From NCBI GenBank assembly GCA_963712115.1, contig CAVQGX010000043.1:64001-128000 (forward strand): a DNA stretch of 64,000 nt. Reading direction: 5' to 3'. Source of the stretch: an uncultured delta proteobacterium (GTDB taxonomy: Bacteria; Desulfobacterota; Syntrophobacteria; BM002). The notes beneath the pieces were generated by a model. It was not told the origin of the DNA. It searched no databases and worked only from the letters and a program-made list of their open reading frames with translations. A program made the translations under genes and the position numbers. Shown piece after piece: positions 25,594 through 32,368 of the stretch (position 1 is its first letter; each line of letters begins with the position of its first letter).

Positions 25594-27099
25594 TTATTTC
25601 CACTTTATTAGCAACCGAGCGGCCTGATCAAGCGCTTCCTGCTGAGTACTTATGCGCCCCTCCCACTGGAGTTCAACCAGAGCGTCAAGAAGCCTTCCCA
25701 CCATAGGGCTTGGAGAGAGATGCAGAAACTTCATAAGATCGTGACCGCTGACTACAGGAGGCTCCATCTCCCTAGGCTTCAGTTGTTCATAGTAAAAATC
25801 TAGCCAGTCACGTATTCGCTGGCGCAGTGGCTGCAAATCGCTTCCAGCTGAGGTAGCGTCGTGAAATGCTTTGTAATTTGAGGCAAACAGCAGAATGAGC
25901 GGCCAAAAAAGCTCAGGTCCTAGTCTAAAGAAACGGGACAGGGCCCGTGTTGGAGTGCGAGTGAGGCGGAAGAGATGGACTGGACGCATATGCTGGCGAA
26001 CAAGCTGGCTGACAAAGTTGATTTCCTTGTTACTTAACAGTAGCCGGGTGCAAAGGGAAGCAGCCAACTCTGATCCTGCAACTTCGTGGCCGTAAAAGTG
26101 GACAGCACCGTTTTTGCCCAGGGATCTGCGACACGGCTTACCTATATTATGGAGCAAAACACCTAGTTTCAGGGCAGTTTGTCGCGTTCTTTCGCCTGCG
26201 AGCTTCTGTAAAAGAATAGCTGAAACGTCGTCAGCATAGTCTCCAAGCAACTCCTGCATGTTGGTTAGAAAGAACTCCATTGCTTCTAGGGCTGAGAGGC
26301 TATGCTGCCAAAGATCCCGATGCTGAGAATCATTCTGCCCCAGATTCCGCATGGCTGCGCACTCAGGCAGCAAAAGTTGCAATACACCGTCTTTGTCCAA
26401 CATTCTTAGGACTGATGCGGAACTCGCTGCCGAAAGAATCAGCATCATTTCATCCCTGATCCGCTCTACCGCTACCTGATTTAAACGGTGACATGCTTGG
26501 AGTATGCTTTTCCGGGTCTGAGCAGGGAGGACAAGACCGTAAGCTGACACTAAACGGTACGCCCTCAAAATGCGAAGCGGATCATCTGAAAGTGAACCTT
26601 GCGAGCAAACACGCAATCTACCGGCCTCAAGGTCCGTAATCCCTCCTAAAGGGTCGAGGAGATGGGCTCCTCTACCAGTCCACCAAGCTGATATATCAAA
26701 AGCCAGGGAATTTATTGTAAAATCACGCTGATAAAGATCATCAAAGATAGATGAACCTCTCAGGGGGGAAAGGTCAACTACGTACGGCTCTCCTATTCCA
26801 TCTGTATGGAGATAGGATATGAGGCGAACGGTCCCAAATTTCCGGTCTATGACCACTGGCTTGCTACCGGTTTGCCTCGCCACTAACTTTGCCAGTTCAG
26901 AAGCGTTGCTGCTTACAAAATCTACATCCTTACAACTCCTTCCGAGCAAGGCGTCGCGCAAGAAACCTCCCACCAAATAGAGTTGATACTCCTCCCTTTG
27001 CGCAACCTCCAGCAGAGCAGAAATGGTTTTGCAGCCCGCGATAAGGTTCTCAACGGAACTCTCAAGCTTGCTGAGGTGAATATTGACAGGTCTATTCAT
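25594..27099 (-). CDS. Class II tRNA nucleotidyltransferase (probable CC-adding enzyme) with a degenerate HD domain
   Basis: VGGFLRDALLG..KDVDF, RDFTINSLA, DDPLRILR and ERIRDE; HD is HN. Confidence 0.85.
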   Translation of the reverse strand: MNRPVNIHLSKLESSVENLIAGCKTISALLEVAQREEYQLYLVGGFLRDALLGRSCKDVDFVSSNASELAKLVARQTGSKPVVIDRKFGTVRLISYLHTDGIGEPYVVDLSPLRGSSIFDDLYQRDFTINSLAFDISAWWTGRGAHLLDPLGGITDLEAGRLRVCSQGSLSDDPLRILRAYRLVSAYGLVLPAQTRKSILQACHRLNQVAVERIRDEMMLILSAASSASVLRMLDKDGVLQLLLPECAAMRNLGQNDSQHRDLWQHSLSALEAMEFFLTNMQELLGDYADDVSAILLQKLAGERTRQTALKLGVLLHNIGKPCRRSLGKNGAVHFYGHEVAGSELAASLCTRLLLSNKEINFVSQLVRQHMRPVHLFRLTRTPTRALSRFFRLGPELFWPLILLFASNYKAFHDATSAGSDLQPLRQRIRDWLDFYYEQLKPREMEPPVVSGHDLMKFLHLSPSPMVGRLLDALVELQWEGRISTQQEALDQAARLLIKWK

Positions 27100-27215
27100 A
27101 GCGAAATCCCAGGAGGAAGCATATACCTACATAGTACAGAGAGAAGATTGCCTGTCAAGGAAGTAGAAGTCTATTAATTAATGGAGAGAACAGAGCTTAA
27201 AAGGATACAGACTTT

Positions 27216-27483
27216 TACTGTCTAAGCTAGGTGGTATTGAGTTAGACAGTATGGATGGGGTATATGGAAGATATTAGGTTATCTTACTATAATTATTTAG
27301 ACTTAGACTGTCTAAATGTATACGCAAAAAGACTTTTCCAAATGAGTCTTATTGGCAACTATACGCAAGTCTTTTTTAGTGTCTTAGACAGTATAAAATA
27401 CTAATATCGCTGCAAGTTTTATCTTATATTAATTTTTTTGAATTTTTTTCTTGACATTTATACAATATATTTGTACTGTCTAA
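27216..27483. promoter_or_regulatory. Array of five TACTGTCTAA boxes plus a sigma70 promoter
   Basis: Boxes at 27216-25(+), 27242-51(-), 27306-15(+, 1 mismatch), 27384-93(-) and 27474-83(+); TTGACA 27451-56, 17 nt, TACTGT. Confidence 0.75.
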
Positions 27484-27526
27484 ATCACTAGGTAAAAAAT
27501 GTAACCCAGTCAATCAAGGATAACTT

Positions 27527-29035
27527 TTGGACAACAATTTAAACAGTAGCACTATCTCTAGTAAGGAACTAATTGCCAAGACAGGAATATCCAGGGCTAC
27601 TCTGAATAATTATATTTCCCTCAATCTTATTCCCTCTCCTGCAGTGCGCAGGCCAGAAGAGCCTGGTGGTCCGACAAAAATGGGGTATTTCCCTGTGTGG
27701 GTTGTGAAAAGGATCGAGAGAATTCAGGAGATGAAATCTTCTGGAATGAGGATGGCAGAAATAGCCCTCCACTTTATGGATGAGGGTACTGAAGGAAAAG
27801 AAGTCCCACGGCAAGGGGTGCTTGATTTTACCTATCAATCAATTGAGCGGATAGTTTTTCCTGCCATTCTGGTCAACTCAAGTTGGGAGATCATTTGGAT
27901 TAACCAAAGTGCCGAGAGGGTGTTTTTTCAAGAGTCTGTTCGTGAAATTCCTACCGCAGCAAACCGGAATATCTTGAGACTTTTCCTGGAGAAAGGTTTG
28001 CTGGGACGGTTTAAAAACTGGAAGGAAATCCTGACGCTGCATTTGCGTCTGGCTAAGCGGGATCTGACTGAGGACCGGGTCGAACAGATCTGTCGCCAGA
28101 TAGAAACTTGTCCTCTAGAAGAGCTGAAGGAATTATGGCGTGAGGCTGAAGCCTTGCAGGAACGGCCTATTACCCAGCAAGACTTGATTTTGAGGCCTTA
28201 CAAAGGCAAGAATAGCAGACATACGCTTTTTTCCACTGATTTTCGTGAGGGCACGCTGCTACTATATACCCCTGTTAACATGCAGCTGGACCAGATTTTA
28301 AACCTTCTTATGGGTAGAGAAAGGCTGGTCAAAGCTCTGCTGTCACGGCGAATTCCTTCCCTTACATCACTTTGTATTCTCGCTGGTCGTTTAGAGTCGA
28401 GCCTTCATCTTCGTACTGCCCTGCCCCCCCACGAGTATTTTGATTTAATCAACCAAGTCATTTTGACCTCCCACCAATGCTTCAAGGATCACGGTGGTAC
28501 GCCAGGCCGTTCAATTCAAGAAGGCGTGGTGTGCTTTTTTCTTTCAGCCCCTGATTCACCCAGGGAATACCTTCACTCAGCCATACAATGTGCTCAGACC
28601 CTGAAACAGATTATCGCCACTCTCGACAAGCGCTGGAAATACAAAAAGGTGTGGAAAAACACCTTGCAGATGAATATGTCCATTCACTGTGGTGAGGAGT
28701 GGCTGGGAACCATACCGTCATCACTGGCCTTCGATTTCACCGTTATGGGCGAAAGCCTGATAGAGTCGGTCAAACTAAGCGAATTTGCTGAGGGTGGCTC
28801 TATCTGGGCCAGCAAGAAAGTGATTGAAAACATGTCGCCAGGAGACCGTCAGCGAGTTGAATTCGGAGTTCGACTTGGAACCGGCCAAGAGAGGTTCGTC
28901 AGCCCAGGTATTTATTCTCAAGTAAAGGAACTGGTCAGCGGTGACGAACTGCATCAGAGAGGACTGAGGGAGATAAGTAACCTTGCAGTCACGGAGATAA
29001 TCAACGTCCACCCACCAGAAGAGCAAGATTTATAA
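27527..29035 (+). CDS. MerR-like HTH - PAS-like - class III nucleotidyl-cyclase-like protein, catalytically degenerate
   Basis: SSKELIAKTGISRATLNNYISLNLIP (HTH); AILVNSSWEIIWINQSAE (PAS); MSIHCGE..GTI..FTVMGE (cyclase fold) with both metal-binding Asp absent. Confidence 0.75.
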   Translation: MDNNLNSSTISSKELIAKTGISRATLNNYISLNLIPSPAVRRPEEPGGPTKMGYFPVWVVKRIERIQEMKSSGMRMAEIALHFMDEGTEGKEVPRQGVLDFTYQSIERIVFPAILVNSSWEIIWINQSAERVFFQESVREIPTAANRNILRLFLEKGLLGRFKNWKEILTLHLRLAKRDLTEDRVEQICRQIETCPLEELKELWREAEALQERPITQQDLILRPYKGKNSRHTLFSTDFREGTLLLYTPVNMQLDQILNLLMGRERLVKALLSRRIPSLTSLCILAGRLESSLHLRTALPPHEYFDLINQVILTSHQCFKDHGGTPGRSIQEGVVCFFLSAPDSPREYLHSAIQCAQTLKQIIATLDKRWKYKKVWKNTLQMNMSIHCGEEWLGTIPSSLAFDFTVMGESLIESVKLSEFAEGGSIWASKKVIENMSPGDRQRVEFGVRLGTGQERFVSPGIYSQVKELVSGDELHQRGLREISNLAVTEIINVHPPEEQDL

Positions 29036-29040
29036 TCTTT

Positions 29041-31047
29041 TTGTTTAAAGCTTCGAGAGTTTATCTCGTGATAACAAATGATTATACAGATAGCGTGGGT
29101 AACCCATTGAGGGGCAGAGCCAGCCTTGTTATCAGGCACATTGCGAAGGCCATGGGGTTAGGCGAACATAGGGTTTACTACGGTCTGGTCATGGCCTTCG
29201 GCCTCCTGTTCGTCCTTCCCAGCCTGGGTTTTATCAATTTTGCCTTCAAGTATGACTTTTTCGCCGACCGAGACATAACTTACTACTTTCTCTCCATCCT
29301 CATCTTTTCCTATCTGGGGTTTTTCATACTTCGCTCGCATGCAGATAGAATCCGTAGCATTTCCGAAAACTTGGAACTGTCGCTACCAGAGGTTCAGCAA
29401 GACTCCAGCAAAAAGCAGACGAGCGAGCTAAATCGGATTGTCTTTTCCTTTCATCAGTTGATCGAGAGATTGGAGAAAAACAATCAAGCGCTTGAATCAC
29501 GTGCATGGCAGCTTCGCTCCTTTGGAGAAGTAATGCAGCTTAGTCCGGCCACCCCGAATACCACTGGTCTATTGAAGTTGGGTTTGCAGAAGGCCTGCGA
29601 AGGAGTTGGTGCCGGACGGGGTTGGGTATTATTGCTGGACGAAAGCCGTCGACACCACTTCAAAGTTGCCTGTGAGGTGGATACAAACGGTGGCCGCCAG
29701 AGCCGAGAGGGGTTCAAAATTGCTTTCAGCGATACTAAGGCAAAAGATGCTGTGATCCAGCGAAGCCCGAGATTCCTTAGTGCGCCTTTCTGGCAGGAAG
29801 AGGTGAATGAGCCAGATGACCAGATGGTGGATGACAAGGGAATCGCGCTTGTTGTGCCTCTCATAACGGGTAGAGACGTGTTTGGTGTCATGTGTCTCGA
29901 GGATAAGCAAGGAAGCCTATCTTTTTCGCCCGCAGATCTCGACTATGTCCTGCCGTTGGCCGCTTTTCTCTCCTACCGTTACGAAAATATTAAGCTTAGG
30001 AAGCTAATCGCCACCCAGTCCAGTCAATACAATTGCCTCGCCGCCTTCAACAATATTTGCAATAAGGGGCTGGTGCAGGGAAAAGTGTTTCAGCTGTTAA
30101 TCAAAGAACTACAAAATTTTGTACCGGTAACTGTGTCCTTTCTAGCTCTTTTTGAAAACGCTCAAGAACAATTGAAACTATTGGAAGTGGCCTCTAAGGA
30201 ACCAATTTCACTTCGCCGAGGTATGGCTTTGCCTCTCAACCAGAGTCTCTTGAGGTTGGTGCTGGAGGAAAACAGGGAAATCTATCGAGAGGACGTCACC
30301 GGGAAAGTTCACCCTCTGGAAGCACGCTGGTTCCGAGAATTAGGTATCAACTCATGTTACCTGGCTCCCTTCCGTATTCAAGGTGTCAATGCTGGAATTC
30401 TGTTCGTCGGAAGCGATACAAAAAGAGGTTTTTCCGATCCTCAGCGAGTCATCTTGAAGCAAGCATGCGATTATCTAGGATTGGCCGTGCACAATCAGAT
30501 GCTCTTGCAGCAGAGAGATGAGCAAGGTCGGGAACTTGAAGCTTTCAACAGAATAGGAAATGTAGTGACTTCATCTCTATTTGATTTGGACGACGTTTTG
30601 GATAAGGTTGGAACCCTGATTGGCCAAATGATAACGGTTGAGGCTGGCGCCATTTATCTTCAGGAGAAGGACGGTCTAGCTGTCAAAAAAAGCTTTGGAA
30701 CCAAGGGAGACAGAATTGAGCCATTTCGGATGAAAAGGATCGAAGGAATATGCGGTTATGTGATGTCTCGGGGAGAATCTGTGCTCGTGCGAGATGCCTC
30801 ACAAAACCCTCACCTGTCCTCAATGGTCAGAGATTTCGGTGGAACAAAAGCACGTTCAATTTTATGTGTGCCTATGGTGGTTGGTGGAGAGGTGATAGGT
30901 GCAATTCATATGTGGAACAAGGAACAGGGCCCATTTACTGCTCATGATAATAAACTAATTAAATCAGTGGCCGCCAGCCTAGCAACAGCTGTTGCAGGTG
31001 CTAGGTTCCGCCAGATCTGCCACGATTTTACCATAAATGAGGTTTAG
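29041..31047 (+). CDS. Membrane protein with two TM helices and three GAF-like domains, no output domain (true start may be ~29152)
   Basis: Two N-terminal hydrophobic segments; GAF ends VVPLITGRDVFGVMCL..F, LAPFRIQGVNAGILFV..F and SILCVPMVVGGEVIGAI..NK..PFT. Confidence 0.8.
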   Translation: MFKASRVYLVITNDYTDSVGNPLRGRASLVIRHIAKAMGLGEHRVYYGLVMAFGLLFVLPSLGFINFAFKYDFFADRDITYYFLSILIFSYLGFFILRSHADRIRSISENLELSLPEVQQDSSKKQTSELNRIVFSFHQLIERLEKNNQALESRAWQLRSFGEVMQLSPATPNTTGLLKLGLQKACEGVGAGRGWVLLLDESRRHHFKVACEVDTNGGRQSREGFKIAFSDTKAKDAVIQRSPRFLSAPFWQEEVNEPDDQMVDDKGIALVVPLITGRDVFGVMCLEDKQGSLSFSPADLDYVLPLAAFLSYRYENIKLRKLIATQSSQYNCLAAFNNICNKGLVQGKVFQLLIKELQNFVPVTVSFLALFENAQEQLKLLEVASKEPISLRRGMALPLNQSLLRLVLEENREIYREDVTGKVHPLEARWFRELGINSCYLAPFRIQGVNAGILFVGSDTKRGFSDPQRVILKQACDYLGLAVHNQMLLQQRDEQGRELEAFNRIGNVVTSSLFDLDDVLDKVGTLIGQMITVEAGAIYLQEKDGLAVKKSFGTKGDRIEPFRMKRIEGICGYVMSRGESVLVRDASQNPHLSSMVRDFGGTKARSILCVPMVVGGEVIGAIHMWNKEQGPFTAHDNKLIKSVAASLATAVAGARFRQICHDFTINEV

Positions 31048-31129
31048 ACTTCGATAATAGTCCAGGTTTAATTCCTAGGATGTTTGGCAGTGTTTGAGTG
31101 ATGATAACCTGATGATTGGGAGGACCCCC

Positions 31130-31570
31130 ATGCAGAACTCCAACCTTGAATCACCTCGAGCTCACATTTTGCTTGTCGAACGGAATCGGGGTGCTCTTGA
31201 GCTCCTTGAAACAATGCTTTGTTGGAAGGGTTATCGGGTGACCACAGCCGTAGATGGTCTTGACGGTTTGGAGAAATTCCGTCTTGGACATTTCAACCTC
31301 ATTCTCACCAATCTTTCTACTTCAAGAATATCAGGCTGGGAGTTAGGCCGTATAGTCAAGAGCAGCCCATCTTCAGTGCCTGTGGCCCTGATTACCGGTC
31401 TGGATTTCGGCACCAGACCAGACCACTCCCCCTTCGATGCCATTATCCCCGAGCCCTTTCCCTTTGATGAATTAGAGTTTATGGTTAATTCGCTGATTGA
31501 ATGTCGGAATGGAGGAGCTGCACCGGCAAACTCAGCAAAGAGCGTGCCGCTGGAGGAAGGCAGATTATGA
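31130..31570 (+). CDS. Single-domain pseudo-receiver (CheY-like)
   Basis: HILLVERN, TAVDGLDGL, LILTNL..ISGWEL, VPVALITG and PEPF; RBS GGAGG. Confidence 0.75.
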   Translation: MQNSNLESPRAHILLVERNRGALELLETMLCWKGYRVTTAVDGLDGLEKFRLGHFNLILTNLSTSRISGWELGRIVKSSPSSVPVALITGLDFGTRPDHSPFDAIIPEPFPFDELEFMVNSLIECRNGGAAPANSAKSVPLEEGRL

Positions 31571-32368
31571 TTGCTCCTTTGCGCGGTTATTCAGATATGA
31601 GATGAGCGATTTCTCAACTTCCTTTATTTCCTTTAGCGCAGGCAGATTACTGCAAAGCCTCTCAACATAATGTCTTTCTAGTACCTCACGGCATGAGATC
31701 GAAAAGTTGAGGTCAAATACCCATCCAAGGCGTAACAATATCATGTCGTTTCGGTTTTGCACTGAGCTAAAGTCCGGGATCTTTCTCTCCATAAGTTCAG
31801 TCACTATTCCACGGTTGAAAGAATTGCTAGTAGGTATGACACCCTCTAGGGTTTCCAATAGGTTACCATGTCCTTCCAGTTCGGTGATGACCACGCGCCA
31901 TATGTCCAGCTTGTCTGCATCCCGGAGGAGTCGGGAAAAAAAATCCTGCCTTTGGGAGAGATTCAGAGGTAGTTTTCGCACATTGTGATGGCGAATTGCT
32001 ATTTGGATCAGCTCCCGATCCTCTGCCTTTAGACCCATTAAGATCTCGTGTTGAGAGATTACCTCAAGACCTAGTAGAGCGTGATCCTCAGATGCACTAT
32101 CATTGAAAGTGGAATAATTCTTCCACTGAGGAAAGCGGCCGATATCGTGAAATAGAGCAGCTGTCTCAGCCAGTAGTAAATCCTTATCCCTCATACCTGA
32201 CTCTCGACCTAAAAAAACTATTTCTTTGCAGGTGCGTTTAGTATGCTGCTCTTTCAGGAGGATAGGCTTCAGCCCATCTCCCTGCAATTCATAGTAGAGG
32301 GCAACGTATTGCTTGAACCAGTCTTTGAAGTAATCCAGCTCTGTTTGTTGCATGATGATGGAATCCAA
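31565..32368 (-). CDS. HD domain phosphohydrolase
   Basis: KEQHT, LFHDIGRF, DHALLG, RHHN and RDADKLD. Confidence 0.88.
   Translation of the reverse strand: MDSIIMQQTELDYFKDWFKQYVALYYELQGDGLKPILLKEQHTKRTCKEIVFLGRESGMRDKDLLLAETAALFHDIGRFPQWKNYSTFNDSASEDHALLGLEVISQHEILMGLKAEDRELIQIAIRHHNVRKLPLNLSQRQDFFSRLLRDADKLDIWRVVITELEGHGNLLETLEGVIPTSNSFNRGIVTELMERKIPDFSSVQNRNDMILLRLGWVFDLNFSISCREVLERHYVERLCSNLPALKEIKEVEKSLISYLNNRAKEQS

Follow-up and report, generated by a model that had tools for sequence, protein, structure and literature searches.

The stretch of DNA analyzed here (the window) spans 64 kb, positions 64,001 to 128,000 of contig CAVQGX010000043.1 (assembly GCA_963712115.1), and derives from an uncultured sediment bacterium of the Syntrophobacteria (Desulfobacterota, BM002) with a genome of 4.9 Mb. 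It contains three long, uninterrupted open reading frames (ORFs) on the same strand, at 27527-29035 (gene 1, 502 aa), 29041-31047 (gene 2, 668 aa), and 31094-31570 (gene 3, 158 aa), as an earlier reading of the sequence alone (the sequence-only reading) had described. The ORFs of genes 1 and 2 are separated by a gap of 5 nt. The real start of gene 2 is probably the GTG at 29068, which yields a 659-aa protein as in most database relatives. Gene 3 is open from a TTG at 31094 and most likely starts at the ATG at 31130 (31130-31570, 146 aa), the start seen in its orthologues and most of its 85 database relatives. The results below suggest that this trio is a regulatory operon composed of a DNA-binding protein with a catalytically dead cyclase domain, a membrane GAF protein without an output domain, and a receiver without its phospho-acceptor.

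Gene 1 encodes a MerR-type winged helix-turn-helix (HTH; residues 9-86), a disordered linker (about residues 86-102), an MmyB/PAS-like domain (103-250), helices (254-273), and a class III cyclase-homology domain (275-497). An AlphaFold2 model built from 70 homologues (predicted local distance difference test score of 82.4) provided matches for each of the three domains that the sequence-only reading had proposed. Residues 275-497 superimpose with VIA-align on the cyclases CyaB (3r5g, Z 22.6), Cya2 (2w01, Z 21.5), and CyaC (1wc1, Z 21.3), and Foldseek also matched the model to CyaC 1wc1 (E 6e-11). At the sequence level, a phmmer search of PDB sequences paired residues 284-444 with those of Cya2 (2w01, E 1.1e-5); Pfam reports no cyclase domain in gene 1, with PF00211 giving no match. 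By VIA-align, residues 8-85 superimpose on the DNA-binding domain of SoxR (2zhh) over 70 residues (Z 11.0, root-mean-square deviation 1.6 Å), and residues 105-277 on the MmyB-like PAS protein 3pxp (Z 10.6, 145 residues aligned). MerR-family DNA-binding domains make up most of the matches listed by Foldseek for the isolated N-terminal domain model. MerR_1 reaches 23.6-34.6 bits, above the Pfam cut-off, in relatives of gene 1, the MLTR_LBD family (PF17765) is precomputed for many close homologues, and DUF4004 is a further near-threshold Pfam match in gene 1 itself. Within the HTH, the motif S22-RATLNNYI-30 is invariant in all 70 aligned family members. The long coiled-coil dimerization helix of MerR proteins is absent from the AlphaFold2 models, in which the helices end at residue 86 and are followed by the low-confidence linker.

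All six canonical catalytic positions of the cyclase domain are replaced in gene 1, which reads R288, R328, E332, E409, I412, and K416. The strings LAGRLESS and SIQEGVV, which the sequence-only reading had placed at the two metal-binding Asp residues, do fall there in the alignment to 2w01: ILAGRLESS aligns with ILTSDLRGF of Cya2, with R288 at the first Asp, and SIQEGVV with FMGDGIL, with E332 at the second. In the same alignment R328 takes the position of the substrate-defining Lys/Glu, I412 that of the transition-state Asn, and K416 that of the Arg. E409 stands at the second position of the substrate-defining pair (Lys/Asp, or Glu/Cys). We take these to be the canonical cyclase positions, a choice cross-checked with 39 homologues that read K, D, N, and R.

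With one genome scanned per species, 539 relatives of gene 1 came to light, and the best 80 loci were retained. Beta-, Alpha-, and Gammaproteobacteria and Desulfobulbales contribute 42 distant full-length homologues (among loci L028-L080) that share 29-36% identity, and 39 of these have D, K, D, D, N, R at the six canonical positions; the exceptions are L066 and L079, which deviate, and L067, which is cut short. Since 39 of the 42 are intact at all six positions, the dead state of gene 1 is, on the evidence of the alignment, derived. The tree places the dead forms on a single branch (support 100, stem of 1.35 substitutions per site), in which L014 is basal, ahead of the orthologue and paralogue groups; the window's genome carries one orthologue and one paralogue. 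The dead clade is a small island in a whole-library search, with representatives at 61% and 47% identity before a drop to 36%, within a wider family of 763 clusters at 50% identity (gene 1 has 754 database relatives). NCBIfam has no model for either the dead or the active form of the family.

The residue losses first noticed in the window are conserved in its relatives: the Asp pair is kept in none of the 29 dead-clade rows. The residues that took over are themselves conserved across the clade (R288 in 26/29, R328 in 28/29, E332 in 29/29, and an acidic residue at 409 in 29/29), and the former transition-state Asn position varies between I, V, M, T, and A. Losses independent of the window's clade are found in two Desulfobulbaceae loci, of which L066:6004-7554 reads S, R, N, T, K, Q and L079:5995-7566 reads V, N, D, D, T, R. 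The relatives also include stand-alone proteins of 265-283 aa that consist of the HTH and PAS-like domains only (L036, L038, L041, L042, L051, L055, L060, L065, L068, and L072) and MerR-cyclase short forms of 305-384 aa without the PAS-like domain.

Gene 2 has three GAF stretches and no other domain in Pfam (GAF_2, E 1e-35). Two hydrophobic segments (residues ~45-70 and ~79-97) with a loop of ~10 residues form a two-helix membrane hairpin, which is followed by a helical linker. The third GAF covers residues 515-651, and the protein ends ~17 residues past it, as do all 12 complete orthologues, in agreement with the two transmembrane segments, three GAF domains, and missing output domain of the sequence-only reading. 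Residues 40-656 are colinear with an 866-aa GAF-cyclase of Syntrophorhabdus (27% identity, E 1e-71) that runs on into a Pfam cyclase domain, and gene 2 stops where that domain begins. A scan of the phylum for gene 2 gave matches in 23 of 401 genomes. In 13 genomes of other genera, 14 places match approximately residues 29-659 within open frames of 856-946 aa, and the short form is confined to the genome of the window and to one other of its genus. A canonical cyclase domain with canonical catalytic residues was found in all 15 long relatives examined. Read most simply, gene 2 is a former GAF-cyclase whose cyclase domain was lost.

In two loci (L064 and L078), a long GAF-cyclase lies directly behind an active-type homologue of gene 1 with a 7-nt overlap, and therefore the order of a gene 1-like and a gene 2-like gene occurs among active forms too. 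In the Syntrophorhabdus locus L078, a dCache-PAS histidine kinase (L078:4374-6440) is found behind the active pair, where the window's clade has the pseudo-receiver. A further long GAF-cyclase has a full-length gene 1 family member with one in-frame TAA (G243:C58:46363-47892) 7.5 kb upstream on the same strand.

The solved GAF domains nearest to gene 2 in sequence are the cyclic nucleoside monophosphate (cNMP)-binding GAFs of PDE2A (GAF-A/B, E 1.1e-11), PDE5, and PDE10A. The third GAF of gene 2 reads NK..F...DN, with DE instead in L012-L014, a string similar to the NKFDE motif, and this domain resembles the cNMP-binding type.

Gene 3 is a receiver domain by Pfam (Response_reg, PF00072; 35.0 bits against a cut-off of 30.2), and its best match among solved structures is 3a0r_B (E 3.2e-9). 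Aligned on solved receivers, and numbered on the 158-aa frame, it has E29-R30 at the acidic pair, N73 at the phospho-Asp, T101 at the Thr, and E120 at the Lys; the corresponding residues of the 146-aa protein, which are used below, are E17, R18, N61, T89, and E108. The replacements at the acidic pocket, the phospho-Asp, and the Lys reported by the sequence-only reading are borne out. Gene 3 fits the definition of an aspartate-less pseudo-receiver given in PMC12632262. Across 86 family members, the phospho-site is N in 76, D in 9, and a gap in 1. The commonest pattern is E-R-N-T-E (53 of 86), and derived members overall read E(R/K)-N-T-E. Five of the 86, the most divergent (basal) members, retain D-Q-D-T-K, and two intermediates read D-Q-N-T-K, a series which indicates that gene 3 is the product of stepwise decay. 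In L014, gene 3 still reads D-Q-D-T-K although genes 1 and 2 of this locus are already dead or truncated; therefore the receiver decayed after the cyclases. A further regularity of the family is that Arg or Lys at position 18 pairs with Glu at 108 in 58 of the 86 members, and in 10 a Gln at 18 is matched by Lys or Arg at 108. Such a swap of charges might lock the fold, with the caveat that the members are related and the pairing is not independent evidence. A survey of aspartate-less receiver (ALR) domains reportedly exists.

The gene order is kept in relatives, in line with the conserved synteny that the sequence-only reading had looked to: of the 14 orthologous loci, all but one (L011) have gene 2 behind gene 1, every one of the 13 loci long enough to include gene 3 carries it, and the genome of the same genus has the same three-gene order. 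The frames are intact in all orthologues. Ratios of nonsynonymous to synonymous substitution rates (dN/dS, Nei-Gojobori) were 0.05-0.11 for gene 1, 0.10-0.33 for gene 2, and 0.08-0.41 for gene 3, with dS near or beyond saturation for the more distant pairs and with noisy values for the closest pairs of the short gene 3. The most constrained part of gene 1 is the core of the pseudo-cyclase domain itself (residues 278-450, positions 28358-28876; dN/dS 0.025-0.125). The operon is conserved and under purifying selection, and the ratios contradict the neutral decay that the sequence-only reading had named as the alternative.

Four metatranscriptome libraries (three studies) gave contigs over all three genes; these span the junction of genes 1 and 2 in all four runs and the spacer between genes 2 and 3 in two. 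The contigs are assembled and come from close relatives, DNA carry-over is possible, and a bridging contig is not proof of a single transcript. Positions 27181-27361 are uncovered by the RNA-library contigs in all four runs. The contigs of close relatives also carry a 26-nt insertion at 31065, in the gene 2/gene 3 spacer, in two sequence variants.

The AT-rich region upstream of gene 1 contains an array of a 9-mer, ACTGTCTAA, at 27217-27483 on both strands. The five exact copies (27217-27225 (+), 27242-27250 (-), 27307-27315 (+), 27384-27392 (-), and 27475-27483 (+)) are all those of the 64-kb window (chance expectation, 0.2) and 5 of the 11 in the whole genome. Copies with one mismatch occur at 27303 (-) and at 27539 (-), the latter within codons 5-7 of gene 1. 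The reverse copy at 27539-27547 is exact in L002, L004-L008, and L010 (at ~+12 of gene 1), where it encodes Leu-Asp-Ser, and the N-terminal codons of gene 1 are possibly under constraint at the DNA level. The last exact copy of the array starts 17 nt past a -35-like TTGACA hexamer (27452-27457, +), and CTTGACA and the downstream TACTGTCTAAAT show little or no variation across all 11 upstream regions aligned. The hexamer is a candidate promoter element, for which no clear -10 element can be assigned in the locus. Operators of MerR proteins lie in an over-long (19-20 bp) spacer between the -35 and -10 elements.

The 9-mer is found across the gene family. Counted as exact matches from -300 to +30 of the gene start, it occurs in every one of the 14 orthologues, in 18 of the 40 distant homologues of the active type, and in 8 of the 10 relatives that have only the HTH and PAS-like domains. 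In the active-type loci there are 22 matches per 12.2 kb inside this zone and 12 per 389 kb outside it, most of the latter just past its edge. The extended consensus is approximately tTnTACTGTCTAAaT, often as inverted pairs. Intergenic DNA is not conserved by descent at 30-36% protein identity, and therefore the motif travels with the gene family. We read ACTGTCTAA as the putative operator of the gene 1 family and gene 1 as a predicted autoregulator, and the presence of this operator-like element upstream of family members across phyla adds support to the transcription factor role that the sequence-only reading had assigned to gene 1. The stand-alone long GAF-cyclases lack the 9-mer upstream in all 13 loci. 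A wider regulon was considered and rejected: the six other genomic copies are single or inside a coding frame, and the adjacent genes (an OmpA-family protein, carA, and two unknowns) share no theme, so these copies are ascribed to chance.

We favor the reading, which we consider reasonably probable, that the three genes form a conserved regulatory operon derived from a cyclic AMP (cAMP)-signaling module, whose enzymatic and phospho-acceptor functions are gone and whose protein scaffolds have been kept under selection. Gene 1 would be an autoregulatory MerR-type protein, whose winged HTH would recognize ACTGTCTAA sites, both single and in inverted pairs, across its own promoter. It would bind there as a dimer, with the dead cyclase domain probably replacing the missing MerR coiled-coil. 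Dimerization through this domain is probable because class III cyclase domains are obligate dimers. The re-tooled conserved pocket (R288, R328, S329, E332, and the acidic residue at 409) may take a ligand or a partner, and the MmyB/PAS-like domain would be a second input. Gene 2 would be what remains of a membrane-anchored GAF-GAF-GAF adenylate cyclase, its sensor half, and would signal only by binding another protein, because no output domain is left. Gene 3, a receiver minus the Asp, the Lys, and one acidic-pocket residue, would serve as a phosphorylation-independent adaptor or modulator. Contacts among the three proteins, by which genes 2 and 3 would control gene 1 in the relay hypothesized by the sequence-only reading, are inferred, as is the sign of regulation.

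By its sequence, the operon itself cannot make a cNMP. The claim of the sequence-only reading that the relay is cNMP-independent is not supported in that form, given GAF domains in gene 2 whose nearest solved relatives bind cNMPs and a genome with 13 other cyclase-domain matches above the Pfam cut-off. On these two grounds the module may still sense cAMP.

Several observations weigh against the operon being the integrated, autoregulated module just described. Some assignments in gene 1 are near threshold: MerR_1 reaches 19.7 bits, just below its cut-off of 21.6, MLTR_LBD reaches 25.7 bits, just below its cut-off of 26.3, and the Foldseek E values for the isolated N-terminal domain exceed 1e-3 throughout. 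In L011 (7525-7756), gene 1 is followed by 232 nt and then gene 3, with no trace of gene 2, and genes 2 and 3 are found in none of the 14 loci of the paralogue clade; therefore gene 1 is not strictly dependent on them. The exact 9-mer is absent from the zone -300 to +30 in all 14 paralogues and in 22 of the 40 active-type homologues, a factor other than the HTH of gene 1 could bind it, and a consensus scan of the locus for promoters and terminators returned site counts no higher than in shuffled sequence. All sequences compared come from metagenome-assembled genomes, with an estimated contamination of 5.99% in that of the window, and the limits on dN/dS and on the RNA contigs given above belong here as well.

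The L011 locus can also be read from the other side, since genes 1 and 3 stayed there when gene 2 was lost, a hint that the two work jointly. In the paralogue loci, a weaker CTTGTCTA is present at about -58 in 8 of 14, and the upstream regions carry conserved elements of their own, such as AATCTGGTAAATT. The gene 1 paralogue without genes 2 and 3, the lost cyclase domain of gene 2, and the stepwise decay of gene 3 all lie beyond what the sequence-only reading had noted.

A rather doubtful alternative is that gene 1 senses a nucleotide (ATP, cAMP, or a related compound) with its pseudo-cyclase pocket, a receptor that would gate DNA binding, in a cAMP-sensing circuit that no longer makes cAMP. 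Arginines would replace the metal ions at the phosphate site, and the GAF domains of gene 2 would be a second cNMP input. The conservation of the former active-site positions in new identities, with 409 always acidic and only the Asn position free, is consistent with such a pocket, but it could equally serve dimerization or partner binding; the dead domain is also the most constrained part of gene 1. The model matches 6yii, a class III adenylyl cyclase-like ATP-binding protein of Pseudomonas aeruginosa, in fold (Z 15.7), but sequence similarity between the two is undetectable and 6yii is not among the matches of the PDB sequence search. The other cyclase-domain matches of the genome (13) speak for this reading, and so do the cNMP-binding GAFs nearest to gene 2, but likeness to the GAFs of phosphodiesterases does not fix the identity of a ligand. 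A broader version, to which we give a similarly low probability, would have the dead domain act as an ATP/cAMP receptor controlling the fused MerR-type domain, genes 2 and 3 as obligate tuning partners, and the members of the active family as autoregulated adenylate cyclases bound to DNA, with ACTGTCTAA as their common operator in different phyla. If true, the receptor reading would make this protein for cAMP what degenerate GGDEF/EAL receptors are for c-di-GMP.

It is unlikely, in our judgment, that the three genes are co-transcribed but belong to separate pathways, with gene 1 a stand-alone one-component regulator like its paralogue and genes 2 and 3 acting on unrelated targets. This would agree with the 14 paralogue loci and 10 HTH-PAS-only relatives that lack genes 2 and 3, and with L011, which kept genes 1 and 3 and lost gene 2. 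It would also agree with the distribution of the long GAF-cyclases, which are mostly apart from gene 1 homologues: none of 13 long forms adjoins one, and a full-length gene 1 family member is present in only 2 of 5 checked genomes that carry a long GAF-cyclase. Against separate pathways stand the tight 5-nt gap between the ORFs of genes 1 and 2, the gene order kept across orthologues down to 67% identity, the overlapping gene 1-like/gene 2-like pairs of L064 and L078, and the fact that genes 1 and 2 have both lost their enzymatic output throughout the clade.

Residual catalysis by the cyclase-homology domain, as a cyclase or in another reaction through non-canonical residues, is very unlikely. 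E332 could still bind a metal and the domain is strongly conserved, but an Arg occupies the first metal-binding Asp position and the transition-state Asn and Arg are gone as well. Two-metal catalysis in the class III cyclase fold needs both Asp residues. The view that the genes are decaying relics on the way to pseudogenes, for which the loss of all catalytic residues might speak, can be dismissed as next to impossible: neutral decay is ruled out by the intact frames of all orthologues and the dN/dS of 0.05-0.41, and 754 database relatives of gene 1, 85 of gene 3, and the coverage by RNA-library contigs speak against it too.

The components of the favored operon can each be compared with known systems. 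Gene 2 is colinear in its hairpin, linker, and three GAF domains with GAF-sensor class III cyclases (the Anabaena CyaB1/CyaB2 type, PDB 1ykd, and the 846-934-aa GAF-GAF-GAF-cyclases of the same phylum) and differs from them in having no cyclase domain; gene 1 has the fold of their catalytic domain (Z 21-23) minus the six catalytic residues. CyaB1 and CyaB2 are activated by cAMP through their GAF domains. With the active MerR-HTH/PAS-like/cyclase family (L028-L080), gene 1 shares the end-to-end architecture, the HTH motif, and the upstream ACTGTCTAA of 18 of 40 loci, whereas 39 of 42 members of that family keep the six residues and the window's long-stem clade keeps none of the Asp pair. The winged HTH is like those of MerR regulators (SoxR 2zhh, MtaN 1r8d, TnrA 4r22, CadR, and BmrR), which differ in having the long dimerization helix that gene 1 lacks. 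Pseudo-enzymes are well known in c-di-GMP and kinase signaling, and in the degenerate GGDEF/EAL receptors LapD and FimX nucleotide-cyclase folds are kept without catalysis for binding. Like the aspartate-less receivers defined in PMC12632262, gene 3 is a receiver minus the phospho-Asp, the Lys, and the second acidic residue, with the Thr kept; in contrast to them, it consists of a single domain and shares its operon with a pseudo-cyclase and a cyclase-less GAF protein, and its stepwise decay is visible within the family.

Searches of open-access papers and bioRxiv for pseudocyclases or MerR-cyclase fusions turned up no bacterial pseudo-cyclase with a DNA-binding domain attached, although subscription journals may hold some, and the trio of a DNA-binding dead cyclase, a cyclase-less GAF partner, and a pseudo-receiver was likewise not found in open-access papers or bioRxiv. 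In the favored reading, a whole operon would have shifted from making and relaying signals to binding only, with intermediates visible in living relatives. The series runs from an active MerR-cyclase with an active GAF-cyclase, through a dead cyclase with an Asp-keeping receiver, to the fully dead trio, and offers natural material for asking how catalytic signaling modules are repurposed. The conserved ACTGTCTAA further suggests that the large active MerR-cyclase family (763 clusters) binds its own promoters.

The intergenic region that carries the motif array is common to gene 1 and a divergent gene (25594-27099, -) for a CCA-adding or poly(A)-polymerase-type enzyme with an HD domain (Pfam). 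This CCA-adding-enzyme-like gene lies upstream in 10 of 14 orthologous loci, and in 3 of the other 4 the contig starts no more than ~550 nt upstream of gene 1. On the other side, a convergent gene for a 267-aa HD-domain protein (31565-32368, -; Pfam HD, 39.3 bits) overlaps the end of gene 3 by 6 nt and is present at the same place in 12 of 14 orthologous loci; the remaining 2 contigs end before it. NCBIfam gives generic HD matches only for this protein, all below cut-off. A Pfam scan for kinases, limited to the five genes from 25594 to 32368, found neither HisKA nor HATPase_c in them.

In several distant, Desulfobulbales-type loci (L045, L048, L057, L058, L062, L066, and L079), the gene 1 homologue is followed on the same strand by a gene for a PAS + HD_5 (HD-GYP-type) protein, an arrangement that suggests a cyclase/phosphodiesterase pair under one operator. 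The HD neighbor of the window was considered as an equivalent phosphodiesterase partner and rejected, its similarity to these PAS-HD_5 proteins being unspecific (E 0.12). The gene 1 paralogue (L082 = G000:C55:46224-47678; L015-L027) is often located between a small cupin gene, upstream and on the opposite strand, and a 97-aa gene without a Pfam family.

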